In this document: positions 2,783-30,971 of the stretch, piece after piece
Numbering within the stretch: the stretch's first letter is position 1
Layout of the letters: every line of letters begins with the position of its first letter
Assembly: GCA_964518165.1 (NCBI GenBank)
Contig: CAZFFN010000126.1
Coordinates: forward strand, 11,275-75,274
Direction of reading: 5' to 3'
DNA length: 64,000 nt
DNA from: an uncultured Thermoplasmatales archaeon
GTDB taxonomy: Archaea > Thermoplasmatota > E2 > DHVEG-1
Notes under the pieces: model-generated
Told to the model about the DNA's origin: nothing
The model's input: the letters and a program-made list of their open reading frames with translations, nothing else
Databases searched by the model: none
Made by a program: the position numbers and the translations under genes

Positions 2783-4507
2783 ATGAGTTATGCCATCCCG
2801 GTGATAAAAGAAAAGATTATTGGTTCATTAAAGTGTGCAATTAATGATAAAAATTTTGAGATTAAATTAGAAAAACCTACTAATGTAAAAATGGGGGATT
2901 TTTCATTTCCATGTTTTAAATTAGCTCCAAAATTCAAAAAATCTCCAAAAGAAATTGCTGAAGATATCACTTCAAAAATTAAAAAAGAAGATTTTTTAGA
3001 AAAAATTGAAACAAAAAATGGTTACATCAATTTTTTCTTAAATGAACAGAAGATCTCTTCTAAAATTATTAATGACATATATAAAACAAAGGAACGTTAT
3101 GGATATCTAAAAAACAAAAATAAAAAAGTAATAATTGAACATACTTCTGCAAATCCTAACGGGCCACTTCATATCGGACGAGCAAGAAATCCTATTATTG
3201 GTGATACTATTGTTAGAATTTTTAAATCAGCAGGATACAATGTTGAATCACAATTTTATTTGGATGATATGGGAAAACAAGTAGCAATTCTAGCATGGGG
3301 TGTAAATCATCTTAAAAAAGATGTGATTAAAACATCCGATAGAAAAAAACCAGATCATGCAACAGTTGGTTATTATCAAAAAGCAACAAAACTTTTAGAA
3401 GAAAACCTCGAAATTTCTGAAGAAATACAAAATTTAATAAAAAAAAGTGAAGAAGGAGATAAAAAAACTATAGAACTTTTACATAAAGCATATAAACCGG
3501 TACTGAAAGGAATGAAGGAAAGCCTTAAAAAATTAAATATTGAGATAGAAAGATACATACCAGAATCAAAATTCTTGGAAAATAACTCTGTTGATGAAGT
3601 TGTTACAAAACTAAAAAAATCAAAATATTCTGATATTGAAAATGGGGCATATTTTATAGATATGGCACCATTTGGAATAAAGGGTAGAAATACTAAATTT
3701 TTCTTTTTAAGAAGAGATGGTACTACTCTTTATGCAACCCGAGATATTGCCTACCATTTGTGGAAGGCAAAAAATGCTGATTTATTAATCAATATACTTG
3801 GTGAAGACCATAAATTAGAATCAAAACAAGTTGAAACTGCCTTAGAAATCGTTGGAGCAAAAAAAATCCCAAAAGTCATTTTTTATTCATTTGTTTCTTT
3901 ACCTGGAGGCAAAATGTCTACCAGGAAAAATAGAGTAGTATATCTTGATGATTTAATTGAGGAATGTATAACCAGAGCGTATCTTGAGGTTAAAAAAAGA
4001 AGGGGAGATGAACTTTCTGAAGAAAAAATGAAAGAAATTGCTGAAAAAATTGGTGTAGGTGCAATTCGATATAACATAATAAAAGTACAGCCTGAAAAAT
4101 CAATTGTTTTCAAATGGGAAGAAGCACTAAATTTTGAAGGAAATTCTGCTCCATTTATACAATATGCACATGCAAGGGCTGCAAGCATAATTAAAAAATA
4201 TGGTAAAAAAGTAAAACTTGATAATAAAATAGAAATATCACATGAATCTGAAATAAGTTTAATTAAAAAAATTGGTGAATTTCCAGATATTATAAATCAA
4301 GCAAGTAAAGAATTTAAACCTCATTTGATTTCATTTTATTTATTTGAACTTGCAGTGCAGTTCAATCAATTTTATAGAGATTGCCATGTTTTATCTGAGA
4401 AAGATAGAGGAATAAAAGAAACTAGATTAAAGATTGTAGTCGCAACAAAAATTGCTATAAAAAATGGTTTAAATATTCTTGGAATAGAAGCACTCGATGA
4501 GATGTAA
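2783..4507 (+). CDS. argS: Arginyl-tRNA synthetase
   Basis: 574 aa with HTSANPNGPLHIGRARN (HIGH motif) and class I ArgS anticodon-binding C-terminus (FNQFYRDCHVL). Confidence 0.9.
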   Translation: MSYAIPVIKEKIIGSLKCAINDKNFEIKLEKPTNVKMGDFSFPCFKLAPKFKKSPKEIAEDITSKIKKEDFLEKIETKNGYINFFLNEQKISSKIINDIYKTKERYGYLKNKNKKVIIEHTSANPNGPLHIGRARNPIIGDTIVRIFKSAGYNVESQFYLDDMGKQVAILAWGVNHLKKDVIKTSDRKKPDHATVGYYQKATKLLEENLEISEEIQNLIKKSEEGDKKTIELLHKAYKPVLKGMKESLKKLNIEIERYIPESKFLENNSVDEVVTKLKKSKYSDIENGAYFIDMAPFGIKGRNTKFFFLRRDGTTLYATRDIAYHLWKAKNADLLINILGEDHKLESKQVETALEIVGAKKIPKVIFYSFVSLPGGKMSTRKNRVVYLDDLIEECITRAYLEVKKRRGDELSEEKMKEIAEKIGVGAIRYNIIKVQPEKSIVFKWEEALNFEGNSAPFIQYAHARAASIIKKYGKKVKLDNKIEISHESEISLIKKIGEFPDIINQASKEFKPHLISFYLFELAVQFNQFYRDCHVLSEKDRGIKETRLKIVVATKIAIKNGLNILGIEALDEM

Positions 4508-5530: not shown

Positions 5531-8500
5531 TTATTTTTTTCTTCTTGGAAAAATTAATACTAAAATAAGGATAATTATTACAATAAATATTGCAATTATA
5601 AACATATTTTTTTCCAAAAAACTTTGTTGTTTTACCTTGTTTGGATAACCAGTTGGTCCAAAAGGCATATGTCCATTGATATCAAATTCCTCATCGTATT
5701 CAACAGGTTTAGTATCTTCTTTTTCCCAATAATTGTTGTCACTATATTCAGTGCTTGGAACATATGGTCTAAGTTCTGGATCACCAAAATAGATGACACT
5801 TTCTTTATCATCCCACCACCATTGTGGGTTACCATCTTCTCCACCGCCGAGATAAAGTATTCCTACGTGTTGAATACCGCGGGCAAAAGCTTCACCAATA
5901 GTATAACCAAGTGCTAAATCACGAGGGATTGTTTCTCTCCAAACAGTTGCATACCAACTAGTAGCCCATGGGTCTTGGATTTGAAAAACTGAACCATGTC
6001 TAATTAACGATAATTGAAGCTGTGTGTACGCTGTTTGACAGATATTTGTAATAAATCCCATGCTGTAAAGATTATCAAGACCTTCGTCCAAAACAGATGC
6101 ATTTTTCATATCTGTAGTTTTTCTAGAAAATGAAAGTGAACCAGTTACACCATCATAAAGATTTTCAACTTCAAATGGAATATTTTCTTTATTGGGAAAT
6201 AATATTTTATTTATTTTTTCACGTATAGGTTTTCTTGCTAAAGCATAATCAAAACCAGTAGGCGGGAAGAATAATGAATTATGGTTTGTGAAAGGAATTA
6301 TTCCCTTGATATCCATAGTCATTGTATCAGGTTCTTCAGTTGAACCGAGATACCAGTCATATCCAAATTTTGGATTTAATTGCTTTGCTGGCCCTACCAA
6401 TAAATTGAAAAGATTTCCTGATTTTGTTTCCGGGTCCCAAAACTCAGTCTCGCCTCCTGCAGTATGATGCCCGTGGGCAGCATGAATCCACATTATGCAA
6501 CCATTATTGATGTTGTCCATAACTTTTTCAAACTGAGTGGAATAAACTGGATTATATCCACCTCTTTCTAAATAAAATGGGACCATCTCAGTTTCAGACA
6601 TATCTGGGAAATAAGCGCCTTTTTTACCAGTGTGTTTTTCAATTGATCCCATATCAATTGGTTCATTAGTTACAGATTCACCTGGAACTAGACCATCAGC
6701 ACATTCATATTTAGCACCATAGTATTTACTAGCTCTTTCATTAAATCTATATTTTTGAGTAACAAATGAACACATTACAGGGTTTTCTGCTTTGACCATT
6801 TGTTCTGGTGTATCAATAACAAGAGTACTTCCAATCGGATTTTTTAATAGACCTAAAATGCCTTGTCTTTTACTAGTACTCCCCGTAACATATGTTTTAT
6901 CTTCACTAAGTGCAGGGTTTTCAAAAATTAGAGCTGGATAAAACATATTACGTGAAATCCAGTAAGCTGAATCAACGGGACTTCCTGCAAATCTACCAGT
7001 GTTAGCAACTCCAATAAATACCCTGTCCCATGAAGCACCTATATCAAATTGATCAGCAACTGTTATAATATTTTCATCGCCTTCTTTATCAAAATTATGT
7101 TTATCCAAAAAATCATAAACCCTTCTACCGGTAAAGACCATTTCTCCACTGGAAGGAGTCCCACCATATCTATCATGAGAAAAATGCTCCCATAAAGTAT
7201 TATGATATGTAACAGCACAGGATAGTTCAGGATGCATATCTACAATCAAAACAGGTGTTCCGTGATGGGCTGCTACAAATGCAGCTGGGCCAATAAATAA
7301 TCCTGCTTCTGTTTCATCTGCCGGTGTTAACTCTTCTTTATACCAAAAGGTCCACGGATCAATTGTTGAAAATACAATATCGTTACTTCCAGATATTTTT
7401 CTAATGCTATCAAATATGTTTTCAATTTTTATGAAATTTTCTTTAATGTTTGCAATTTCTTCAAGGTTATTAAAAACATCTTTTGATATGTGATCACAGA
7501 AATTAACTAGATAAATATCTTTTACTCCTAGTTTAAATAATGCTTCTTTTGTTTTATCTGATAGTTTTTCTGAAGAAGTATATAGAAGAGGAGCATTTAG
7601 AGAACTAGCAAGAACTGCACCGTTAGTTGCAGAAGCAAGTGAGTCACCTTCAACTTTTGATATATTTTGCTCCCAAGAATATTCTATTTCAAAATCAAGA
7701 GGTGAATCAATATCATTTTTTGAAAAAACAGATACTGAATAATGCTCGTCATTTTTACATTCTCCTAAGGAATGTATTTTAACTTTCTGATGAGTCTCTT
7801 CTTCATTTTCTTCAAAAGCAGTATATATTGCTTCTCCACTAGGTCCAACTAGAGTAAAACCAAGATCTACATTTGGATTATCCCATTTTAATTTAATTTC
7901 AACATCCCTACAACCAAAAGGTGTTTGATCAGGAATCTTAATGTCTATACCTGGATACATTGTAACATCAACATGATAAGTTACACCAGGTTTAATCATA
8001 CCGCCAACTGTTCCTTGGAGTTGGAGTAAATTTCCTATTATATTTTTCCTAACATAATCAGCATCACCTTCAGTAGGCATATCAGTTACGCCAATACGCC
8101 ATTTACCAGGTTTATATATGTATGCATGGGCTGGTTCGTGACCTGCAGGTTGATAAACATTCCAAGCTGAAACAGCAGTAGTTTGAAGCCAACCTTGTTC
8201 GTCTTTACAATATATTTGCATGTCTGGATCGCCCGTAGGCATCATAATCCTGTCACCAATAAGAAGTCCATCCCACCAGCAATCTGCATATAAAAATTTA
8301 TACCCCTCAGGAATATCAAAGGTATGATAAATTGGGTTTAACGAGTTGGTTTGTTCTAAATTAAATGTCTCAATTTCATGTATTGAAGAAGCAGGAAGAG
8401 TTCTTTTTATGGTATTTTTAGTTTCAATATTCGGGGTTTCAAAATCTTTTTCAACTACAGATACAACTGCTTTATCTGAATAAGACCATTCATTTAAAGC

Positions 8501-19393: not shown

Positions 19394-20170
19394 ATGACAA
19401 AAGTAACCCTTGATATGAGCAGTTTCAAAGCACTTGCTTCAGATACAAGATTAAATATTTTAAAGTCCTTAGATGGAAAAAAGATGAATCTAAAGGACAT
19501 ATCTAAAGAAACTGAACTAAACAAGGCAACTCTCCATGAACATCTAAATAAACTATCTGAAGCCGGGCTTGTAAAAAGAATTGAAAGAAAAGGCCATAAA
19601 TGGGTTTATTACAAACTTACCTGGAAAGGAGAAGGGCTACTTCATCCAGAAAACACTAGAATTGTAGTGCTTTTTTCTTTAACTTTTGTTGCTCTTGCAG
19701 CAGGAATAGTTCAATTTATTAGATATCTGACTGTGAAAGTTTCTAATACAATTCCAAGGAATCTTAATGACGTTGGTTATGGAATTAGAGAAGGAACTGA
19801 TACTCTATTTAAAAGTGCAAATGTAACTGATTCAAATAACGCCATATATATAGCAACCGATAGTGTTAATGAATCATTACCTGGAACAGTGGATTTATTT
19901 CTTTCTAGGGGATTTGCTAATTCAAACCAATCAATACTACCTTTTATAAAAGATAAAATCCCTTATAATTGGAATTTAACTACAAATCATACTGTTAATA
20001 CAACCACACCAAAAATAGATACTGGAGCAAATTTAGCTGCAGAACAAACAACTAATTTTACAAGCGATCCATTGTTGCTATATATTGCAATAGGATGTTT
20101 CATTCTATTTGCATCTATCTTATGCATTTCAATTTGGAGATACAAAAAGAACAAAACTCCAAAACTCTAA
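19394..20170 (+). CDS. Membrane-embedded ArsR/SmtB-type winged-helix transcription regulator (HTH-TM-extracellular NxS/T-rich region-TM)
   Basis: The N-terminal FKALASDTRLNILKSLDGKKMNLKDISKETELNKATLHEHLNKLSEAGLV is an ArsR-family HTH. A TM helix follows, then an approximately 120-aa N/T/S-rich segment with many N-x-S/T sequons, a C-terminal TM and a KKNK tail. Confidence 0.65.
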   Translation: MTKVTLDMSSFKALASDTRLNILKSLDGKKMNLKDISKETELNKATLHEHLNKLSEAGLVKRIERKGHKWVYYKLTWKGEGLLHPENTRIVVLFSLTFVALAAGIVQFIRYLTVKVSNTIPRNLNDVGYGIREGTDTLFKSANVTDSNNAIYIATDSVNESLPGTVDLFLSRGFANSNQSILPFIKDKIPYNWNLTTNHTVNTTTPKIDTGANLAAEQTTNFTSDPLLLYIAIGCFILFASILCISIWRYKKNKTPKL

Positions 20171-20454
20171 TGCCTCCCGTAAATATTCTATATAATACTT
20201 ACTTTCTGATTAATTTGGTTTTAATACTTTTTCTAAATCTTCTTCTTCAATAAAATCAAATAATGTTTTTTGCATCCGCATCACCAACTACATGTATATA
20301 ATAAGTATTTAAAAATGTTTTTCCATAATTTTTAGGAAAATCAGTATTTTATAAAATTATCAAATATTTTTTATTTTTGATATTTTTATATTCCAAAATA
20401 TTAAAATATATATATTTTGATTACAAATTATAATGTGGAGTTGGGGGAATAAAC

Positions 20455-22146
20455 GTGAGACATAAATTTTTTGATGTAAAAAAAGGTGTTTTTTTTGTAG
20501 TGAGTATATTGTTTTTGATGAATATTTTTATGCCGGTTACAAATAGCATAAAATTAAATTCAAGTTCAAATAATAAAGATTTTTCAATAATTATTCACAA
20601 AATATTTCAAGATGATGAAATTGATCCCTTTCCCCATTTAGAAGGCGGAGATTGGAAACTATCTATATATGTAAATGATGAAAAAAGAACTTTAGAATGC
20701 TCAGGGAAAGAAGTAATACTTGATAAAATACTTGTTTGGGAAGATATCATTCAAGAGAATATGAAATTTTTAGAGATAAGATTTGAACTTTTAGATTTAG
20801 ATTCTGGTGTTTGGCCTGATGAACATGATATTGCAGATATTAGCGCATATGCTGATGAAAACTATTATGATGGCAAATATGATGATACAGAAGATTTTGA
20901 AAATAATAGACCTGCTGTTTTTAAAAGATATTACAATCTTGTAAGCGAGAAATGGGAGGAAGTAGACAATAATAATGATTACTTACAAGAGGTGCAAGAA
21001 TCATATTTAACATGGTTTCTTACTAGTGGTAATTTTGATGGGAGTACTACAACAGATGAAAACGATGTTTCAATTTGGTTTGATATATCAATTGGGAACT
21101 CTGCTCCATTTCCACCAGAAACACCATCGGGGCCTACCTCTGGATGGGTAGATCAGATTTATTTGTACACTACAAAAACCAATGATCCAGATAATGATAA
21201 AATAAAATATGGATGGGATTGGGATGGAGATGATGAAATTGATCAAATAACTGATTTTTTTGACCCTTGGGAATCTGCTGATGTTTATCATGGATGGTCC
21301 ACTGGTAAAATCAACTATGTTAAAGTCTGTGCAATAGATGAAAAAGGTGCGGTAAGTGAATGGTCCAATGAATTAAAGGTAGAAATTAATGGACCATATG
21401 GCAAAAGTGGATTTGAACTTGAAGAATGGTCATTAGGAGAAATATATTGTGTATATCTTGATCATTATGAAACAACTGAACTATTAGATATATTAAGAGG
21501 CGGTGGAAATATTGTTACTGCCGCTGCAGGGTTGATTTCGGCTATTGCAACTGCTGCCGGGGTTCCACTAGACATAAGCATTTCTATTGCAATAGTAACT
21601 GGAATTTTGAGGCTTGGAGTTGAAGTTATCAACCTTATGGATAGAGGTATGGGTATTTATGTAAAAACGTATATTGTAATGCTTGAAGGTGTTCCACTTT
21701 CATATTTTTCAGTAATGTGGTCTCAGTCTTTAGGGGATGATGCGTGGAGTATACCTGATGGGAATCAAGCTCCAAATACACCTAATAAACCCATTGGCGA
21801 AATAAAATGTAAAAAGGGTAAATCGTATACTTTTACTAGTGTTTCTGATGATCCAAATGATGATAAAATTGCTTATGTTTTCGAATGGGGCGATGGAACC
21901 TATAGTTGTGTTGATTATAATAATTCAGGTGAATCAGTTAGTCAAAAACATAATTGGTCTGAAATAGGAGAATATAATATTCGAGTGAAAGCAATTGATA
22001 TTTATGGTTATGAAAGCAAGTGGTCTGAACCATTAAACATTGAAATTAATAAAAAGAGTAAGATCAAATTCTTTTTGAAATTAGAAAATTTTTATGAGGT
22101 ATTTAAAAATGTTTTTGGAAAAGAAATTTGTAGAGAGGTGATATAA
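20455..22146 (+). CDS. Secreted protein with two PKD-like modules (GTG start)
   Basis: GTG start with GGGGG 7 nt upstream. Signal peptide, two approximately 90-aa modules (DPDNDKIKYGWDWDGD...; DPNDDKIAYVFEWGDG...HNWSEIGEYNIRVKAIDIYGYESKWSEP), and an internal Gly/Ala-rich hydrophobic stretch. Confidence 0.7.
   Translation: MRHKFFDVKKGVFFVVSILFLMNIFMPVTNSIKLNSSSNNKDFSIIIHKIFQDDEIDPFPHLEGGDWKLSIYVNDEKRTLECSGKEVILDKILVWEDIIQENMKFLEIRFELLDLDSGVWPDEHDIADISAYADENYYDGKYDDTEDFENNRPAVFKRYYNLVSEKWEEVDNNNDYLQEVQESYLTWFLTSGNFDGSTTTDENDVSIWFDISIGNSAPFPPETPSGPTSGWVDQIYLYTTKTNDPDNDKIKYGWDWDGDDEIDQITDFFDPWESADVYHGWSTGKINYVKVCAIDEKGAVSEWSNELKVEINGPYGKSGFELEEWSLGEIYCVYLDHYETTELLDILRGGGNIVTAAAGLISAIATAAGVPLDISISIAIVTGILRLGVEVINLMDRGMGIYVKTYIVMLEGVPLSYFSVMWSQSLGDDAWSIPDGNQAPNTPNKPIGEIKCKKGKSYTFTSVSDDPNDDKIAYVFEWGDGTYSCVDYNNSGESVSQKHNWSEIGEYNIRVKAIDIYGYESKWSEPLNIEINKKSKIKFFLKLENFYEVFKNVFGKEICREVI
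21112..21390 (+). repeat. PKD-like protein module copy 1 (in gene 20455..22146)
   Basis: Protein-level repeat DP-x-x-D-x-I-x-Y-x-[WF]-[DE]-W-[GND]-D... ...V-[KR]-[VA]-[KC]-A-x-D-x-x-G-x-x-S-x-W-S. Confidence 0.6.
21766..22047 (+). repeat. PKD-like protein module copy 2 (in gene 20455..22146)
   Basis: Same motif set: YVFEWGDGTY ... NIRVKAIDIYGYESKWSEPLNI. Confidence 0.6.
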
Positions 22147-22176
22147 ATTAAAAAAAATTTTTTAATCATATTTTTA

Positions 22177-23721
22177 ATGATTTTTTGTTTGGTTGGGAGT
22201 ATATATGCTGGTGCAATAAAAATAGATAAAGAAAATAATGAAATTCTAAATAAAACAATTAATGCTAATTCTTCCTGGACTTTAATGATTTATTTGGATG
22301 GTGATAATAATCTTGAAAGCAGTGCAATAGATGATTTTTTAGAAATGTCTGCTGTAGGATCTACTGAAAATGTTAATATTGTAGTCCAGTTTGATAGGGT
22401 TGATGGGTATGATTACTCGTTTGGGGATTGGACTAGTTGTAAAAGATTCCATATTTTAAAAGATATGGTTCCAACTCCAGAAAATGCTATAATGGATATC
22501 GGGGAAGCAAATATGGGTGACCCTCAAGAACTTATAGATTTTGCAACCTGGTCAATGAGTAATTTTCCAGCTGAAAAATATTGTTTAATTCTTTGGGATC
22601 ATGGATCAGGTTGGAAACTATCTAATAAAAATGGGAGAAAAGATATTTGTGAAGATATTACTAATTATGATGTTCTAAAATTATATGAGTTAAAAAATGC
22701 TCTATCAGAGATTACATCTGATTCTTCATTTAAGATTGACTTACTAGGCTTTGATGCTTGTTTGATGGGTGAAATTGAAGTTGCTTACGAATTAAAAAAT
22801 TTTTGTAATTTCTTTACTGCTTCAGAAAATACAGAGCCTGCAGACGGATGGAATTATGAAGATTCTTTAGCTGATTTAATTGATAATTATGAAAACACAG
22901 ATGGTGAAAAACTTGGCGAATATTTTGTAACACATTATGAAGGGTATCAGATTACATTATCAACAATAGATGTTTCAAATTTGAATGCGTTAACAGATGC
23001 TATCAGTAATCTTGCTTCAGCTTTATCTTCTTCAGAATATATAGATAAAGTTCTAAATGTTTTTAGTAATGTTGAAAAATATATGGAATCTTGTGATATA
23101 TATCATTTTGCTCAGTTGATATCTGAAAATATTTATGATTATGCAATTCAACAATATTCTGAGGAGGTAAAAAATGAAATCGAATACACGGTTACTTCTG
23201 AAAAACATGATAGTTATAATGAAAATTCACATGGGCTTTCGATATATTTACCTGATTGTACATATGATCACGAATATGATAGTTTGGATTTTTCAACTAA
23301 TGGTTTGTGGGATGATTTTTTAATCTATATTTTTGAAGGTGCTACTTCAAGTAATCCACCAACTATACCCATTATAAATGGCATAAGTGAAGGAGAAGCA
23401 GGTACGACACATCGTTATACTTTTCAGTCATCTGATCCAGAAGGAGATGATATATATTATGTAATTGACTGGAATGATGGATCTCAACATGAAATAATTG
23501 GTCCAAAAGCAACAGGTGTTGAGATAGAAGCATATCATGTTTGGTATGACCAAGGAGGATATGTTTTACGAGCTAAAGCAGTTGATTCAAATGGAGCTGC
23601 TAGTTCATGGAGTACCTTTAATATAATGATGCCCAGGATAAAAAATAGTTTCAGAGATAGTTTGAAATTACCTTTCTTAAGAAATATATTTGAGATTTTT
23701 AATATTGGAGAGGATTTTTAA
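22177..23721 (+). CDS. Clostripain-family (C11, clan CD) cysteine peptidase with a C-terminal PKD-like module
   Basis: WTLMIYLDGDNNLE N-terminal motif, LILWDHGSGW (His-Gly) and LLGFDACLMG (Asp-Ala-Cys). The C-terminal module is DPEGDDIYYVIDWNDGS...YVLRAKAVDSNGAASSWS. Confidence 0.8.
   Translation: MIFCLVGSIYAGAIKIDKENNEILNKTINANSSWTLMIYLDGDNNLESSAIDDFLEMSAVGSTENVNIVVQFDRVDGYDYSFGDWTSCKRFHILKDMVPTPENAIMDIGEANMGDPQELIDFATWSMSNFPAEKYCLILWDHGSGWKLSNKNGRKDICEDITNYDVLKLYELKNALSEITSDSSFKIDLLGFDACLMGEIEVAYELKNFCNFFTASENTEPADGWNYEDSLADLIDNYENTDGEKLGEYFVTHYEGYQITLSTIDVSNLNALTDAISNLASALSSSEYIDKVLNVFSNVEKYMESCDIYHFAQLISENIYDYAIQQYSEEVKNEIEYTVTSEKHDSYNENSHGLSIYLPDCTYDHEYDSLDFSTNGLWDDFLIYIFEGATSSNPPTIPIINGISEGEAGTTHRYTFQSSDPEGDDIYYVIDWNDGSQHEIIGPKATGVEIEAYHVWYDQGGYVLRAKAVDSNGAASSWSTFNIMMPRIKNSFRDSLKLPFLRNIFEIFNIGEDF
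23350..23634 (+). repeat. PKD-like protein module (in C11 peptidase gene)
   Basis: YYVIDWNDGSQ ... YVLRAKAVDSNGAASSWSTFNI. Confidence 0.6.
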
Positions 23722-23723
23722 AA

Positions 23724-25865
23724 ATGTTAAAAAATAAATTTATTAGTTTATCAATTATTTTTTTATTTATTTTTTCTAGTTTTGCGGGTGCCATTTGTAT
23801 TAGTAACAAAAGCAATATAAAAAAAGAAAATGAAAGATATACTTCTCTTTCTAAAGGAATTGGCGGTTGGCACTCTGAAGAAAGTCTTCAGGTTGATGGT
23901 AAAAATTTTGAAGATGTCGAAAAGATTGGTGGTAATGGAGGCGGTTGGGAAAGCCCTTATGAAACAAATTCTATTAGAATATGGGCAGAGGAAAATCGTG
24001 TTAGAGCAAAATATCTTTTTGATATTGATGAAGGGCCAGTTAAATATTTAAAATATGATATTTTGTATAAAGATGTAGGATGGTTTTCAGATGGCCCTGA
24101 TGCATTAGTTTATAACTGGGATGATACTTGGGGTTCCTATTCAAATATTGGTGGAGCTGGTGAAGATAATGATAATTATGAATGGGAAACTCATACCTTT
24201 ACAACTAATTCAGATAAATATGTAAATAGTAAAGGAGAAATACTTGTTGGAGCACAAGCATATGATGATTCTTCAGTTTTTCACCAAGATGATTTAGCTA
24301 TAAAGATAATGAAAATTTCCTATAAAGCTGCAGATGAAGAAATTTTTAATGTTGAATATCAACCATATGATTCAAATGATGATGGTGCAAAAGATAGCAT
24401 TAAAGCTAAAATTGATGCGGATGTTGGAAATGATGGAGATGGAACTTCAGTTAATGTTAAAGCTATTTGTTATCTAAAAGATCCCTCCGGTAACATTATT
24501 GATTCAAATCAAAAAACATGGTTAATAACCGATCATCAAGTTGAATATGGAATAATTAATACAAGTTCGCTTGGCGGAAATAATGGAATGTATAGTTTAG
24601 AAATCAAGTTAATTGATGAATATGGAAATTTAGAAGATGAAACTTCTAAATCTATTTATCTTGTCCCCGATCCAAAAAGAACTGTTGATTTTTATGTATC
24701 ACCTATTGAAGGTGGGTCGATACTTCTTGAGCAAAGTACATACTATGATAATGAGTCAACGCTTCTATCAAATAAAGAATATGATATTTCAGCTTTATCA
24801 GAAGAATATTACGCGTTTGACAAATGGGAATGTACTGGTGGCGTTTCAGTTGAACATTACAATTCTAAAGATACAAAAATGACTGTAAACAATAATGGGA
24901 GTATAAAAGCAGTTTTTACATTTGAATTTAATACATTATACTTTTTTGTTCAACCAGACTTTTCAGGATATATTAAAGTTGAAGATAATGATTTTACTAA
25001 TAATTCAGGATGCTATATTGATTCTGGAAAATATTCTCTAGAAGCTGTATCAACTGATGATTCATACTATTTTTCCGAGTGGTATGTTGAAGGAGATATC
25101 AGTGTTGAAGATGAATATATTTCTCAAACAGTATTAGATGTGTTTGGTGATGGAATACTCTTAGCAATTTTCAATGAAAATAATCCGCCTAATAAACCAG
25201 AACTTCCTGACGGGGCTCTTTCCGGGGCAATATATGAAAGTTATTCTTATTCAACTAAAACAACTGACTCTAATAAAGATCAAATATATTATTTATTTGA
25301 CTGGAATGATGGCACAGATAGTGGCTGGCTTGGACCTTATGAATCCGATGAAAAATGTACTGCAGCTCATAGTTGGGGAGGGTCTAGAACGTATCAAGTG
25401 AGAGTAAAGGCTAAGGATAGTCATGGTTCAGAAAGTGAATGGTCTGATCCTATTTCGGTTGGAATTTTCAGCCCTCCTTCTTCTCCAAAAATAAAGGGTC
25501 CAACACATGGAGAAATCAAAAAAGAATATGATTTTACGTTTAGTTCTACGGATCCAGATAGCGATGATGTATATTTCTATATAGAATGGGGGGATAATAA
25601 CATTGAAGATTGGGTGGGCCCCTACAATTCTGGCGAAGAGGTAACAATATCACATTCATTTAGAAGAAAAGGCACTTTTACAATAAAAGCACTTGCAAAA
25701 GATGAAAACGAGGTTGTAAGCCAATCATGGGGGATGCTAGTTATTGATTGTCCAAAAACAAAAAAATATAATTTTAATTTTCTGGATTTTTTAATAGAAA
25801 AATCTATATTCATAAGATTGGTTGAAAAAATACAATTCCTATCTTTGTTTGATTTTTTAAATTGA
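23724..25865 (+). CDS. Secreted protein with Ig-like/InlB-B-like repeats and two C-terminal PKD-like modules
   Basis: Signal peptide MLKNKFISLSIIFLFIFSSFAGA. Modules are DSNKDQIYYLFDWNDGT...YQVRVKAKDSHGSESEWSDP and DPDSDDVYFYIEWGDNN...FTIKALAKDENEVVSQSW. It starts 3 nt after the upstream gene. Confidence 0.7.
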   Translation: MLKNKFISLSIIFLFIFSSFAGAICISNKSNIKKENERYTSLSKGIGGWHSEESLQVDGKNFEDVEKIGGNGGGWESPYETNSIRIWAEENRVRAKYLFDIDEGPVKYLKYDILYKDVGWFSDGPDALVYNWDDTWGSYSNIGGAGEDNDNYEWETHTFTTNSDKYVNSKGEILVGAQAYDDSSVFHQDDLAIKIMKISYKAADEEIFNVEYQPYDSNDDGAKDSIKAKIDADVGNDGDGTSVNVKAICYLKDPSGNIIDSNQKTWLITDHQVEYGIINTSSLGGNNGMYSLEIKLIDEYGNLEDETSKSIYLVPDPKRTVDFYVSPIEGGSILLEQSTYYDNESTLLSNKEYDISALSEEYYAFDKWECTGGVSVEHYNSKDTKMTVNNNGSIKAVFTFEFNTLYFFVQPDFSGYIKVEDNDFTNNSGCYIDSGKYSLEAVSTDDSYYFSEWYVEGDISVEDEYISQTVLDVFGDGILLAIFNENNPPNKPELPDGALSGAIYESYSYSTKTTDSNKDQIYYLFDWNDGTDSGWLGPYESDEKCTAAHSWGGSRTYQVRVKAKDSHGSESEWSDPISVGIFSPPSSPKIKGPTHGEIKKEYDFTFSSTDPDSDDVYFYIEWGDNNIEDWVGPYNSGEEVTISHSFRRKGTFTIKALAKDENEVVSQSWGMLVIDCPKTKKYNFNFLDFLIEKSIFIRLVEKIQFLSLFDFLN
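25179..25465 (+). repeat. PKD-like protein module copy 1 (in gene 23724..25865)
   Basis: YYLFDWNDGT ... YQVRVKAKDSHGSESEWSDPISV. Confidence 0.6.
25469..25750 (+). repeat. PKD-like protein module copy 2 (in gene 23724..25865)
   Basis: YFYIEWGDNN ... FTIKALAKDENEVVSQSWGML. Confidence 0.55.
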
Positions 25866-25988
25866 ACAAAAACAACCTAATTTTTTTATTTTTTTACTAT
25901 TTTTTCATGTAAATCCTACAAAAACCTAATAATATACCAAAAAACTTTTATAACAAGAAAAAAATATTATAGATTCAAAGTAATTTAT

Positions 25989-26003
25989 ATTGTGAGATTA
26001 TGA
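25989..26003 (+). promoter_or_regulatory. ATTGTGAGA-TTATGA motif upstream of TFB copy 1 (shared with the TFB copy 2 start region)
   Basis: The same ATTGTGAGA ... GATTATGA spans the ATG of TFB copy 2 (30020..30040). Here it initiates a 14-codon uORF (26000..26044) encoding MINKNYFNNIQTVT, similar to the TFB2 N-terminus [11 protein letters not shown]. Confidence 0.45.
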
Positions 26004-26101
26004 TTAATAAAAATTATTTCAATAATATTCAGACAGTGACCTAGAAGATATAATTTGAAATAAAGTTTTTTTGGTTATAAAATATAATATGAGGGTTAAA
26101 G

Positions 26102-27037
26102 TTGAATAAAAAAGACAAACAGAAAATCGAATATAAAACAAAGTGTCCTGAATGCGGCAGTATAAACCTTGCAAAAAATTATAGTAGGGGTGAAATTGTT
26201 TGTGAAGATTGCGGTCTTGTGGTAACCGAAGACTTAGCAGATCATGGTCCAGAGTGGCGTGCTTTTGATAGTGAACAACATAAAAAGAAAGCAAGAGCAG
26301 GACCACCAATGAAATATACCATACATGATAAAGGATTAAGCACAGCTATAAGCTGGAAAAATAGAGATGCATATGGTAGATCAATCCCTACAAAAAACAG
26401 AGGGCAAATTTACAGACTTAGAAAATGGCAGAGAAGGACAAGAATAAGTAGCGCATCTGAAAGAAGTCTTGCTGAGGCTTTTTCTGTTCTAAGTAGAATT
26501 TCATCTAGAATGAATCTACCTAGAAGCATTAGAGAAAGAGCAGGAATGCTTTACAGGCAAGCAGCTAAAAAGAACTTAATTAGGGGTAGAAGTGTAGAAA
26601 TCGTAGTTGTAGCAACAATATATGCGGCCTGTAGGCTAGCAGGTATGCCAAGAACACTTGACGAGATTAGTAGTATAACCAGCATTTCTAGAAGAGATAT
26701 TGGTAGAACATATAGATTTGTAGTCAGAGAACTCAAGCTTAAAATGGCTGTTCCTTCACCACTTGATTATATTACTAGATTTATAGGGGATTTAAATCTC
26801 AGCCAGAAAGTAAAAAAGAAATCCGTAGATATTTTAAATCTAGCTATCGAAAAAGAATTAACTAGTGGTAGAGGCCCGGTTGGTGTTGCAGCTGCATCGA
26901 TATATATTGCTTCAGTTATATCTGGTGAAAGAAGAACTCAAAAAGAAATATCTGATGTAGCAAGAGTTACAGAAGTTACAATAAGAAACAGATACAAGGA
27001 ATTAGCTAGAAAACTGGACATACGAATGGAAATCTAA
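26102..27037 (+). CDS. tfb: Transcription initiation factor IIB (TFB), copy 1, TTG start
   Basis: 311 aa with a Zn ribbon (CPECGS...CEDCG), B-finger/linker and two cyclin folds. No in-frame ATG precedes the Zn ribbon. The TTG start makes its N-terminal length equal to TFB copy 2, and GAGGG lies 6 nt upstream. Confidence 0.85.
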
Positions 27038-29911: not shown

Positions 29912-30035
29912 TATTTATGTTATAAGGTTTTTTCTTTTTTAAAACGTTGATTATCGATATAAATGTACCAAAACTTTATATAGAAGTAGTTATACATATA
30001 TATTGATAAATAAATAGAAATTGTGAGAAGAGATT

Positions 30036-30971
30036 ATGAAAAATAAAGAAATAAATTCAATAGAGGAAATAATTGAATGCCCTGAATGTAAAAGCGAAAA
30101 ACTTACAAAAGATTACAACAGAGCAGAAATTGTCTGTAACAGATGTGGCCTTGTTATAGACGAAAACTTAATAGATTACGGTCCAGAGTGGCGTGCTTTT
30201 GATAGCGAACAAAAACAAAAAAGAGCAAGAACAGGAATGCCAATGACACCATTAATGCATGATAAAGGACTTACAACCACAATAGATTGGAAAAATAGAG
30301 ACTTTTATGGAAGATCAATACCAAACAGAAATAGATCTAGAGTATATAGGCTAAGAAAATGGCAGAGAAGGCTTAGAACAAGCCAATACCAAGAACGAAA
30401 CCTAATGGAAGCACTAAGAAACCTTGATAGAATGTCTTCTTCCCTTGCACTTCCAAGATCGGTAAGGGAAAACTCAGCAATGATTTATAGAAAAGCAATG
30501 GATAAAAACCTAATTAGAGGTAGAAGCATAGATGGAGTAGTTGCTGCAACGATATATGCAGCATGTAGACAATGTAATGTTCCAAGAACACTTGATGAAA
30601 TAAGCCAAAAAACAGGGATAAAAAGAAAAGAAATTGGTAGAAACTATAGACATATAAATAAATCATTAAAACTAAACCTCAGACCAACTAAACCAAAACA
30701 ATACTTAACACGATTCTGTAACGATCTTGACTTAAGTTCAAAAACTAGAGCAAAAGCCGACAATATCCTAAAAAAAGCTACAAATAAAGAACTTGTAAGT
30801 GGCAGAGGACCAATAGGACTTGCTGCTGCATCATTATACATGGCATCTGTTTTATCAGGTGAAAAAAGAACCCAGAAAGAAATCGCAGAAACATCAGGTG
30901 TTACAGAAGTTACAATTAGAAATAGATACAAAGAACTAGCTGATAGATTAAGCATTAAAATTGCAGTATAA
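30036..30971 (+). CDS. tfb: Transcription initiation factor IIB (TFB), copy 2
   Basis: 311 aa, collinear with copy 1 (CPECKS...CNRCG Zn ribbon, GPEWRAFD, cyclin repeats). Confidence 0.9.

Follow-up and report, generated by a model that had tools for sequence, protein, structure and literature searches.

The stretch of DNA analysed here, called the window below and 64 kb long, carries two genes of the TFIIB family, TFB1 and TFB2. They are direct repeats separated by 2998 nt, in line with the spacing of ~3 kb given in an earlier note on this DNA. That note had drawn attention to a 9-mer, ATTGTGAGA, found at the TFB2 start and upstream of TFB1, and had offered two accounts of it: a relic of the duplication breakpoint, with the old 5′ end kept and a new TTG start created downstream, or a conserved cis-element. 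The two start regions comprise the following features.

25937..25953, + strand: TFB1 promoter, with BRE CCAAAAAAC (25937–25945) and TATA box TTTTATAA (25946–25953)
25977..26101, + strand: TFB1 5′ leader, inferred, about 125 nt, from a predicted transcription start site (TSS) at A25977 ± 2
25989..26003, + strand: 15-mer ATTGTGAGATTATGA, consisting of the 9-mer and TTATGA, with a Shine–Dalgarno-like GTGA core 4 nt before the ATG of an upstream open reading frame (uORF)
26000..26044, + strand: uORF of 14 codons, MINKNYFNNIQTVT and a stop, in frame with TFB1 and separated from it by several stop codons
26091..26096, + strand: TFB1 Shine–Dalgarno sequence GAGGGT, 5 nt before the TTG start
26102..27037, + strand: TFB1 coding sequence, 311 aa, TTG start
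29966..29982, + strand: TFB2 promoter, with BRE TACCAAAAC and TATA box TTTATATA (29975–29982)
30002..30023, + strand: TFB2 leader segment of variable length, ~20 nt of inserted sequence by comparison with L086, L088 and L171, with ATTG direct repeats at its borders
30023..30032, + strand: GTGAGAAGAG, a purine-rich element directly upstream of the TFB2 ATG, read as a ribosome-binding or 5′ UTR element
30036..30971, + strand: TFB2 coding sequence, 311 aa, ATG start

Both proteins have the makeup of the TFIIB family: an N-terminal zinc ribbon, two C-terminal cyclin-like repeats and a B-reader/linker. PF08271 and PF00382 are recorded for each. The CxxC...CxxC zinc ribbon reads CPECGS..CEDCG in TFB1 and CPECKS..CNRCG in TFB2, and GPEWRAFD, in the B-reader/linker region, is kept in all orthologs. 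The two proteins are about 60–61% identical over a full-length alignment of 297 aa without gaps. They are ancient paralogs, each as near to other Thermoplasmatota TFBs (63–69%) as to its neighbour (60%). For comparison we used 8 TFB2 and 9 TFB1 orthologous loci, obtained by exact-protein look-ups; genome and metagenome scans yielded mostly TFBs of 55–67% identity with unrelated upstream regions. The more distant TFB1 orthologs stand in a different context, adjoining aIF-1A, so the present tandem arrangement is not the site of the duplication.

Aligning the promoter regions of relatives, a check proposed in the earlier note, gave a divided answer: the BRE and TATA box are conserved at both genes, but the 9-mer upstream of TFB1 is not. 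All orthologs of either gene have an 8-nt TATA box with an adjoining upstream BRE, and the sequence farther upstream is not alignable. At TFB1 the string ACCAAAA-N2-3-TTTTTATAA is kept in every ortholog (L178, L083, L084, L173, L174 and L086), and at TFB2 CTTTATATAGAAGTAnTTATACATATAT is kept in every ortholog with upstream sequence. A strict scan for AAAA-N0-2-CTTT-W4 found few intergenic matches besides the two TFB promoters. Looser forms of the BRE/TATA string are visible by eye upstream of several genes.

We predicted start sites at 25977 for TFB1 and about 30006 for TFB2 by extrapolating a rule from M. jannaschii, where the start of transcription follows the TATA box by about 23 ± 2 nt and mapped BRE/TATA core promoters are followed by Shine–Dalgarno-led 5′ UTRs (PMC2699501). 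The likeness to those promoters extends to several details. Both TATA boxes, TTTTATAA (TFB1) and TTTATATA (TFB2), fit TWTATATA and stand behind an A-rich BRE, the predicted start is a purine that follows a pyrimidine and lies 23 ± 2 nt beyond the box, and a G-rich ribosome-binding site lies a few nucleotides before the start codon. Unlike the mapped M. jannaschii promoters, those described here have predicted start sites, and a leader of ~125 nt is long.

The TTG start of TFB1 is ancestral. Together with GAGGGT it was found in every TFB1 ortholog, down to 72–75% identity and including those with leaders of ~25 nt; the arrangement is (A/T)GAGGGT-N5-TTG at eight of the nine orthologous loci, with the variant TGGGGTT in L174. 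No TFB1 ortholog has an in-frame ATG upstream of the zinc ribbon, and a TTG at −14/−15 from the ribbon is common among related TFB genes. The genome uses Shine–Dalgarno sites: the 20 nt ahead of the gene starts in the window show about a 7-fold excess of GAGG and GGAG, and one of about 3-fold for AGAG, GAGA and GTGA. We infer that GAGGGT acts as such a site at TFB1.

The leader itself has a different history. A long TFB1 leader (110–125 nt) occurs only in the window, L178, L083 and L084, and is probably derived, because it is confined to these four closest genomes. It measures ~25 nt in L086 and L173, and in the outgroups L176 and L001 there is a gap of 32–60 nt after aIF-1A. The long-leader sequences are barely alignable between orthologs. 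Single-sequence folding of the leaders of three TFB1 orthologs gave no significant RNA structure against shuffles (z = −1.6, −0.2 and −0.2). Rfam models produced no match at gathering score over the whole window and none at E ≤ 1 on 25860–26130, and the window contains no rRNA. An origin of the leader by duplication of the start region or promoter of TFB1 itself was rejected. The candidate repeats, one direct (26042–26058 and 26076–26092) and one an inverted copy of the promoter (25936–25956 and 26055–26075), score at background and overlap each other, and were treated as AT-rich noise.

At TFB2, GTGAGAAGAG is present in all 8 orthologs with at most two substitutions, always 0–3 nt before the ATG, and its distance to the TATA box varies by 0–22 nt of unrelated sequence. 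The leader insertion measures 0 nt in L086, L088, L171 and L172, about 6–8 nt in L168 and 19–22 nt in the window, L014 and L169. As a result of this variation the element overlaps the predicted TSS in L086, L088 and L171, and lies at +15 or beyond in the window, L014 and L169. Because its distance to the ATG is fixed and that to the promoter variable, GTGAGAAGAG fits a ribosome-binding region better than an operator; it would be a weak, A-substituted version of the GGAGG-type sites dominant in this genome. The view of the 9-mer as a conserved element thus holds only in part: its GTGAGAAGAG core is kept at TFB2, but it tracks the ATG and not the promoter, and the 'ATT' part of the 9-mer is not conserved even among TFB2 orthologs.

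Searched on either strand, ATTGTGAGA has exactly two copies in the 64 kb, at 25989 and 30020, both on the sense strand. The expected count is 0.95 and 25 of 100 shuffles reach at least two copies, so the count by itself is not significant. What is odd is the position, with both copies upstream of TFB genes. Exactly 54 nt separate each copy from the BRE's TACC, and in the predicted transcripts the copies fall at +13 and +15. The TFB1 copy corresponds to the TFB2 20-mer ATTGTGAGAAGAGATTATGA without 5 nt between two GAGA repeats (all 15 bases agree), and the two share the exact 10-mer GAGATTATGA. The GTGA core can form only four pairs with the canonical archaeal 16S rRNA tail.

Conservation at TFB1 is poor. 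The counterparts of the 15-mer are TTTGTGATATTATGT in L178, ACTGTAAGATTTATGG in L083 and TCATGAGAATATAA in L084; no TFB1 ortholog has the exact 9-mer, of which 7 of 9 bases match in L178 and L083 and about 6 of 9 in L084, and nothing resembling it is present at the TFB1 loci of the short-leader clade. Among the loci compared, the exact 9-mer occurs only in the window's own genome and at TFB2 of L086. Majority rule, applied to the window, L178, L083 and L084, would place the 15-mer in the ancestor of the long-leader clade, although the alignments of L083 and L084 are ambiguous. This suggests, with little weight, that the 15-mer has persisted here while synonymous sites neared saturation.

We think it somewhat better than an even chance, at a probability of about 0.55, that the motif upstream of TFB1 is a look-alike of little conservation, within an mRNA leader that has lengthened recently, and that the TFB2 motif is that gene's own ribosome-binding stretch. 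TFB1 would be transcribed from its conserved BRE/TATA promoter, about 150 nt upstream, and translated from the ancestral TTG behind the conserved GAGGGT. The 56 nt flagged in the earlier note would occupy roughly +13 to +68, close to the 5′ end of a lineage-restricted mRNA leader. In TFB2, GTGAGAAGAG would be the purine-rich, Shine–Dalgarno-like part of the translation-initiation region. The look-alike in the TFB1 leader would date from the last shared ancestor of the long-leader genomes; it would since have drifted in all sister lineages, and only this genome would, by chance, have it intact. It was apparently not kept by selection, its Shine–Dalgarno-like element and ATG opening a short uORF without a conserved peptide, and it would lack a function. 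The conservation patterns, the statistics and the phylogeny in this explanation are observed.

A different origin with the same present function is possible, though we give it distinctly less credence: homology instead of coincidence. A piece of TFB2 that took in the Shine–Dalgarno-like element, the ATG and about the first twelve codons may have been copied into the expanding TFB1 leader of the long-leader ancestor and have decayed since. The route would be template switching or short-patch gene conversion, the two promoters being similar to each other and directly repeated at a distance of 4 kb. We scored the likeness by composition-aware local alignment, which replaced uniform-scoring blastn, whose matches upstream of TFB1 are dominated by A/T runs; in plain blastn of this upstream region against the window, TFB2 is one of many matches at E = 0.72. 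Among 3176 window tiles the TFB2 5′ end is the top match of the TFB1 leader (24.06, against a mean of 12.4 and a standard deviation of 2.2), and a comparison with 105 translation-start regions, drawn from the window and from related genomes, puts TFB2 regions in the first two places (24.7 and 22.8), ahead of a third at 19.2. The leader scores 24.1 against the TFB2 start region and 12.5 against that of TFB1 itself, and dinucleotide shuffles gave p = 0.0044, 0.001 and 0.007 under different gap costs and choices of the sequence to be shuffled. These results moderately favour a specific resemblance to the TFB2 start region, beyond composition.

Other observations are also consistent with a copying event. 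The likeness is colinear (Shine–Dalgarno-like element, ATG, AATAAA, TTCAATA), the 5-nt difference amounts to a clean deletion between the GAGA repeats, and the best match of the L083 leader to its own TFB2 falls on the homologous spot, if with a background score. Independent evidence points to sequence exchange between TFB1 and TFB2 in this lineage. A 26-nt identical run (26246–26271 and 30180–30205) contains the rare codons GAG and CGT, for which the closest TFB2 orthologs have GAA and AGA, and the TFB2 sites derived toward the TFB1 state cluster at nt 115–215 (11:3 inside against 20:43 outside; Fisher p = 0.002, for an interval picked after viewing the data); the candidate conversion tract spans 26214–26314 in TFB1 and 30148–30248 in TFB2. 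Direct repeats 4 kb apart with an identical stretch and clustered conversion-like sites resemble ectopic gene conversion of tandem paralogs, and a leader patch similar to the 5′ end of the other paralog resembles such conversion or a partial duplication.

What tells against copying is that, for all the shuffle p values of 0.001–0.007, the score of 24.06 only equals that of the best unrelated match in the window, the runner-up at 23.93. The sister leaders carry no significant TFB2 signal: compared with the TFB2 loci of their own genomes, those of L083 and L084 take places 167 of 642 and 177 of 406, which is background. Unlike ectopic conversion tracts, the leader patch is short, 82% identical over 33 nt beyond the 15-mer, and has no recognisable duplication junction or flanking repeat to mark an insertion; other look-alikes of similar size in the same AT-rich leader are at background. 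Where the sister leaders depart from the window's sequence, the TFB2-like base is at nearly every site the one in the window, as is expected if the most similar of several drifting copies gets noticed. We rate coincidence in AT-rich sequence as slightly more likely to be the origin of the likeness than a short ectopic copy of the TFB2 5′ end.

The uORF described earlier is present, 26000..26044 translating to MINKNYFNNIQTVT, and its peptide does share a likeness with the TFB2 N terminus (MINK.. against MKNK..), but a weak one, made of the commonest codons of a 30% GC genome. Conceivably the uORF is regulatory: led by GTGA and translated, it would lower or condition TTG-initiated translation of TFB1 in the window and its nearest relative, whether by the way ribosomes load onto or leave the leader or by a change in mRNA stability. 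In L178 a uORF of 13 codons, MFNLNQFNHLVFT and a stop, lies in the same frame. Among the TFB1 orthologs compared, the ATG and frame are kept only there, and a GTGA core 4 nt ahead of that start codon is common to the window and L178 alone; the lengths, 14 and 13 codons, are similar. The two peptides, however, agree at only 5 of 13 residues, with whole codons swapped (AAA to CTT, TAT to CAA). L083 has an unrelated 22-codon ORF instead, the ATG of L084 is lost and reads ATA, and the region is missing from the short-leader orthologs.

Nucleotide identities between the window and L178 amount to 90% for the BRE/TATA and 89% for the Shine–Dalgarno sequence with TTG, 80% for the 15-mer, 71% for uORF codons 2–9 and 12% from codon 10 to the stop, and 51% for the 3′ part of the leader, against 63% at third codon positions and 50% at 4-fold sites. 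The 5′ half of the uORF, at 71–80%, exceeds the 50–63% of silent sites. Taken together, the 15-mer and codons 2–9 are 74% identical, above the 50% at 4-fold sites (p = 0.002), and weak constraint on them may exist; for the flagged segment as a whole, the excess over the 63% baseline is not significant (p = 0.09).

A regulatory uORF would also suit the fact that long leaders arose in the same clade for both TFB genes. Still, start, frame and peptide are not jointly conserved among the relatives compared. The uORF stops 57 nt before the TTG, hence it neither overlaps nor is coupled to the main start, and we found no nearby stop or alternative RNA fold. A length of 13–14 codons is about that expected by chance, with stop frequency estimated at about 0.08 per codon at 30% GC, and in M. 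jannaschii 5′ UTRs uORFs occur at about the chance rate, no commoner than in random sequence (PMC2699501). In having a Shine–Dalgarno-like sequence and an ATG that open a short ORF in the leader of a regulatory gene, the arrangement resembles bacterial-type leader peptides and uORFs (e.g. PMC13285730). Unlike these, it has no conserved peptide, no regulatory codon run, no coupling to the main start and no conservation beyond the nearest relative, and unlike bacterial attenuators the leader shows no terminator/anti-terminator fold (z about 0 to −1.6). We consider a regulatory uORF unlikely.

The cis-element account fares less well. A regulator, or TFB, TBP or RNA polymerase, would bind ATTGTGAGA, as DNA or as RNA, at about +13 to +15 of both genes and so allow auto- or cross-regulation. 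The sole two copies in 64 kb stand on the sense strand at the same 54-nt distance from the BRE, the core is conserved in TFB2 orthologs, and altered regulation of duplicated TFBs in Halobacterium salinarum is reported to change phenotype (PMC3261711). But the exact form is missing from all TFB1 orthologs, so that a conserved element is not supported at that gene, and the short-leader clade has nothing like it. The 0–22 nt of variation relative to the TATA box in TFB2 orthologs and the unconserved 'ATT' likewise speak against a bound site, as does the lack of dyad symmetry in the 9-mer and of copies at other promoters in the window. Taken together, this makes a shared operator improbable.

More improbable again is that the TFB1 leader carries a translated, Shine–Dalgarno-led mimic of the TFB2 initiation region, ectopically copied and coupling the translation of both paralogs, in which ribosomes or an RNA-binding regulator may recognise GUGAGA..AUG. 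If true, this would be post-transcriptional cross-talk between TFB paralogs; we know of no such device described.

That the uORF was the original start of a duplicated TFB gene, with the TTG created later downstream, is contradicted by the ortholog comparison and scarcely credible: its 14 codons match in number the tail that precedes the zinc ribbon at the N terminus, its frame is that of TFB1 and its end, ACAGTGACCTAGAAG, is loosely like the CPEC-coding ACAAAGTGTCCTGAATG, but TTG and GAGGGT are already present in short-leader orthologs and outgroups, the long leader is limited to one subclade, distant TFB1 orthologs sit beside aIF-1A and not in tandem, and the paralogs split long before. Synonymous sites are saturated even between 97%-identical orthologs, and with a paralog identity of 60% no neutral relic could last that long. 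Whether it began as a coincidence or as an ectopic copy, the motif in the TFB1 leader would on the favoured reading neither descend from the TFB1/TFB2 duplication nor be a conserved site of regulation.

TFB paralog families are known from other archaea, including Halobacterium (PMC3261711) and Sulfolobus, with TFB3 (PMC6101594) and TFB2 (bioRxiv 10.64898/2026.09.06.749720). As in other multi-TFB archaea, the window has two full-length TFBs with their own promoters and differently built 5′ regions, and unlike the truncated Sulfolobus TFB3 both keep the zinc ribbon and the two cyclin repeats. Unlike multi-TFB systems with diverged regulation, the motif shared here is not conserved at TFB1.

If the look-alike reading is right, the comparison is mainly of corrective value: a motif common to paralogous promoters in an AT-rich genome should not, without orthologs, be taken for a regulatory site or a duplication scar. 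Here the orthologs part the constrained elements (BRE/TATA, Shine–Dalgarno sequence with start codon, and GTGAGAAGAG of TFB2) from a drifting leader. Were the uORF translated and regulatory, and only then, it would be relevant to the balance that archaea strike between alternative general transcription factors. The architecture that emerges for this uncultured Thermoplasmatota-like group is one in which TFB1 starts at a weak TTG of ancient conservation, behind a leader that is long in one subclade, and TFB2 has an ATG start, a near-consensus promoter and an ancestrally very short leader. A weak TTG behind a long leader in TFB1 and an ATG behind a short one in TFB2 are compatible with different expression levels, and the asymmetry is of the kind that would be expected if the two factors are expressed at different levels.

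Two full-length genes for transcription factor B (TFB), TFB1 and TFB2, lie 2998 nt apart in the window, whose GC content is 30%. Both encode the zinc ribbon and TFIIB repeats (PF08271, PF00382), and their products align gaplessly with 61% identity across 297 residues.

Promoters and genes of the two TFB paralogs
25937-25953, + strand, BRE/TATA promoter of TFB1, CCAAAAAAC plus TTTTATAA
26102..27037, + strand, TFB1, TTG start
29966-29982, + strand, BRE/TATA promoter of TFB2, TACCAAAAC plus TTTATATA
30036..30971, + strand, TFB2, ATG start

The 9-mer ATTGTGAGA occurs twice in the 64-kb window, at 25989 and 30020 (0.95 copies expected; at least two reached in 25 of 100 shuffles). The TFB1 copy, ATTGTGAGATTATGA, is the TFB2 string ATTGTGAGAAGAGATTATGA minus 5 nt between two GAGA repeats, and an ATG at 26000 opens an upstream ORF (uORF) encoding MINKNYFNNIQTVT and a stop. 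In M. jannaschii transcription was mapped to start 23 ± 2 nt from the TATA box (PMC2699501); extrapolating this distance would place the TSS near A25977 for TFB1 and G/A30006 for TFB2, giving predicted leaders of about 125 and 30 nt with the 9-mer at about +13 and +15. On recheck of the window, everything the earlier note had stated about the sequence, from the 9-mer at both genes to the uORF, was correct. The observation is real; its interpretation is to be replaced. The account with the best support is ordinary: a look-alike without conservation in the TFB1 leader.

The top matches among species-representative genomes were Thermoplasmata/Thermoplasmatales MAGs, the top one just 72% identical; closer orthologous loci were obtained through exact-protein look-ups.

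Orthologs in relatives' loci, with identity to the window gene
TFB1: L178, 97%
TFB1: L082/L083, 90%
TFB1: L084/L085, 87%
TFB1: L173, 84%
TFB1: L174/L175, 84%
TFB1: L086/L087, 82%
TFB1: L176/L177, 75%
TFB2: L014, 92%
TFB2: L168, 86%
TFB2: L086, about 84%
TFB2: L172, L169, L088 and L171, 80-83%

A neighbour-joining tree with L176 and L001 as outgroups split the TFB1 orthologs into clade A, (window, L083), L084, and clade B, L174, (L086, L173); L178, fetched after the tree was built, was assigned to clade A from its 97% TFB1 identity to the window. Other Thermoplasmatota TFBs are 63-69% identical to each of TFB1 and TFB2, which are only about 60% identical to one another, so the two are ancient paralogs. 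The order TFB1-MscS-NUDIX-TFB2 is also present in L086. In the outgroups TFB1 directly follows aIF-1A, so a tandem duplication did not take place in the current neighbourhood.

That neighbourhood has been rearranged repeatedly. Distant TFB1 orthologs adjoin the 3' side of aIF-1A (L001 5152-5472, L176 5615-5968) on the same strand across a 32-60 nt gap, and the aIF-1A of L084 (6989-7306) is a convergent neighbour downstream of TFB1. In L171, where the HTH regulator gene and MscS flank the place of TFB1, the gene is missing except for a remnant of its last 36 codons (3708-3815; 61% identity to the TFB1 C-terminus); the TFB2 of this contig (6001-6937) matches in two frames near the 3' end, a frameshift or assembly error. 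A conserved block, TTCATCCAGAAAATCAAATAATGTTTTCTGCATCCACATCACC, corresponding to a small minus-strand ORF of 24-43 aa (MMRVQKTLFDFLDEEDLKEIQKIN in L086), has the HTH regulator gene on one side and TFB1 on the other in relatives (L086 5743-5817, minus strand; L084 about 5700-5760; L173 1-50; L171 about 3620-3665; L178 about 1740-1790). In the window (20248-20274) it follows the HTH gene (19394-20170), and three inserted genes (20455-25865) precede TFB1.

Upstream of TFB2, all orthologs keep the promoter block CTTTATATAGAAGTAnTTATACATATAT, followed by an insertion of 0 nt (L086, L088, L171, L172), about 6-8 nt (L168) or 19-22 nt (window, L014, L169); the window's, at 30002-30023 between the promoter block and GTGAGAAGAG, is flanked by ATTG direct repeats. 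Next come (T)GTGAGAAGAG, 0-3 nt and the ATG. TFB2 orthologs are unalignable 5' of the BRE, and 4-fold sites are just 50% identical even between the window's TFB1 and that of L178 (97% identical), so GTGAGAAGAG is under selection. Its spacing is constant to the ATG and variable to the promoter; the short forms have it across the predicted TSS, which leaves them about 10-14 nt of leader. Shine-Dalgarno (SD) sites are clearly in use in this genome: GGAG and GAGG are enriched 7-fold before starts, and AGAG, GAGA and GTGA about 3-fold. Given the fixed ATG distance and this SD usage, we read GTGAGAAGAG as a putative ribosome-binding or 5'UTR element of TFB2. The 'AT' at the front of the 9-mer varies even among TFB2 orthologs.

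Upstream of TFB1, all orthologs share ACCAAAA-N2-3-TTTTTATAA with about 20 nt downstream and, down to 72% identity, (A/T)GAGGGT-N5-TTG (TTG at 26102-26104 in the window, 5527 in L001, 6001 in L176, 2014 in L178). In none of the TFB1 orthologs is the zinc ribbon preceded by an in-frame ATG. The TTG start is old rather than new. TTG at -14/-15 is frequent among the related TFB genes fetched; 173 TFB genes were detected in the fetched loci, of which 50 lack an ATG upstream of the zinc ribbon, many of these 50 with TTG at -14/-15, and use of a weak start codon seems to be a long-standing, conserved trait of these genes. Only in clade A (window, L178, L083, L084) does the TTG lie about 150 nt from the TATA box; in L174 the distance is about 85 nt, and in L086 and L173 about 57 nt. 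Of these leaders the long one is probably derived. Genomes with the ~20-nt TFB2 insertion also have the long TFB1 leader, so both leaders were lengthened in one clade. The ancestral TTG and SD, the derived leader and the paralogs' age contradict the proposal that the segment is a duplication-breakpoint relic, its old start kept and a new TTG created.

The 9-mer position in clade A leaders
Window: ATTGTGAGA; uORF of 14 codons
L178: TTTGTGATA; uORF of 13 codons in the same frame, 5/13 residues identical
L083: ACTGTAAGA; unrelated 22-codon ORF
L084: about TCATGAGA; uORF ATG lost

Identity between window and L178 along the TFB1 upstream region
BRE/TATA: 90%
TATA-to-TSS spacer (predicted TSS): 91%
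+1 to +12: 42%
15-mer: 80%
uORF codons 2-9: 71%
uORF codons 10 to stop: 12%
3' leader: 51%
SD plus TTG: 89%

Two baselines apply: 63%, the identity at silent third positions and also 5' of the BRE, and 50%, that at 4-fold sites. The flagged segment (25989-26044) did not significantly exceed the former (p = 0.09) but exceeded the latter (p = 0.002); any constraint is weak at best. Folds of the TFB1 leader gave no RNA structure signal, and no Rfam family matches it; none reached its gathering score anywhere in the 64-kb window, which thus shows no known RNA, whether tRNA, rRNA or other. The leader also holds an inverted 21-nt copy (81%) of the TFB1 BRE/TATA (25936-25956 vs 26055-26075), on the minus strand ACCAAAAAAACTTTATTT, promoter-like and pointing back through the uORF; unconserved in L083 and L178 and scoring at background, it is probably AT-rich noise.

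Could the likeness have begun with the copying of a short piece of the TFB2 5' end? We compared leaders by composition-aware local alignment with 3176 window tiles and 105 real translation-start regions. The best tile for the TFB1 leader was the TFB2 5' end (24.06; mean 12.4, sd 2.2), against 23.93 for an unrelated window locus. TFB2 of the window (24.7) and of L086 (22.8) were the top two of the 105 start regions (next 19.2), so generic start-region features fail to explain the likeness; TFB1's own start region scored at background (12.5), and dinucleotide shuffles gave p = 0.0044, 0.001 and 0.007. The L083 and L084 leaders showed no TFB2 likeness, ranking 512 and 2422 of 3176 tiles, and 167/642 and 177/406 against their own TFB2 loci. 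At positions where the window and sister leaders disagree, it is nearly always the window that has the TFB2-like base, as expected when the sequence that gets noticed is the closest match among several that are drifting; a decaying copy is also compatible.

Within the genes, the paralogs share a 26-nt identical run (26246-26271 = 30180-30205) encoding GPEWRAFD with rare codons GAG and CGT, where the nearest TFB2 orthologs have GAA and AGA. Sites at which the window's TFB2 has left the state of its orthologs for that of TFB1 concentrate at alignment nt 115-215 (11:3 inside vs 20:43 outside; with the interval chosen post hoc, Fisher p = 0.002), a wider conversion-like interval at 26214-26314 in TFB1 and 30148-30248 in TFB2. 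This suggests short-patch gene conversion between them in this lineage, which makes it a priori more likely that the patch in the leader has an ectopic origin, without proving it. Such a copy, differing from the ordinary account in origin only, is a tentative minority reading.

A functional, lineage-specific uORF, for which the frame kept in L178 may speak and the near-baseline identity does not, is unlikely. A 9-mer acting as shared operator of both TFB genes is very improbable: the proposed conserved cis-element for auto- or cross-regulation is not conserved at TFB1, and at TFB2 it tracks the ATG, not the promoter. These ratings overlap and do not sum to 1, the copy concerning origin and the others function.

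On the ordinary account, to which we return, TFB2 would have a conserved ribosome-binding stretch, and a non-conserved look-alike early in the lineage-specific TFB1 leader would form a short SD-led uORF without detectable constraint. We put the probability that the flagged segment has no present function at roughly 55%. Whether functionless, copied, a uORF or an operator, it would not represent a new kind of system.
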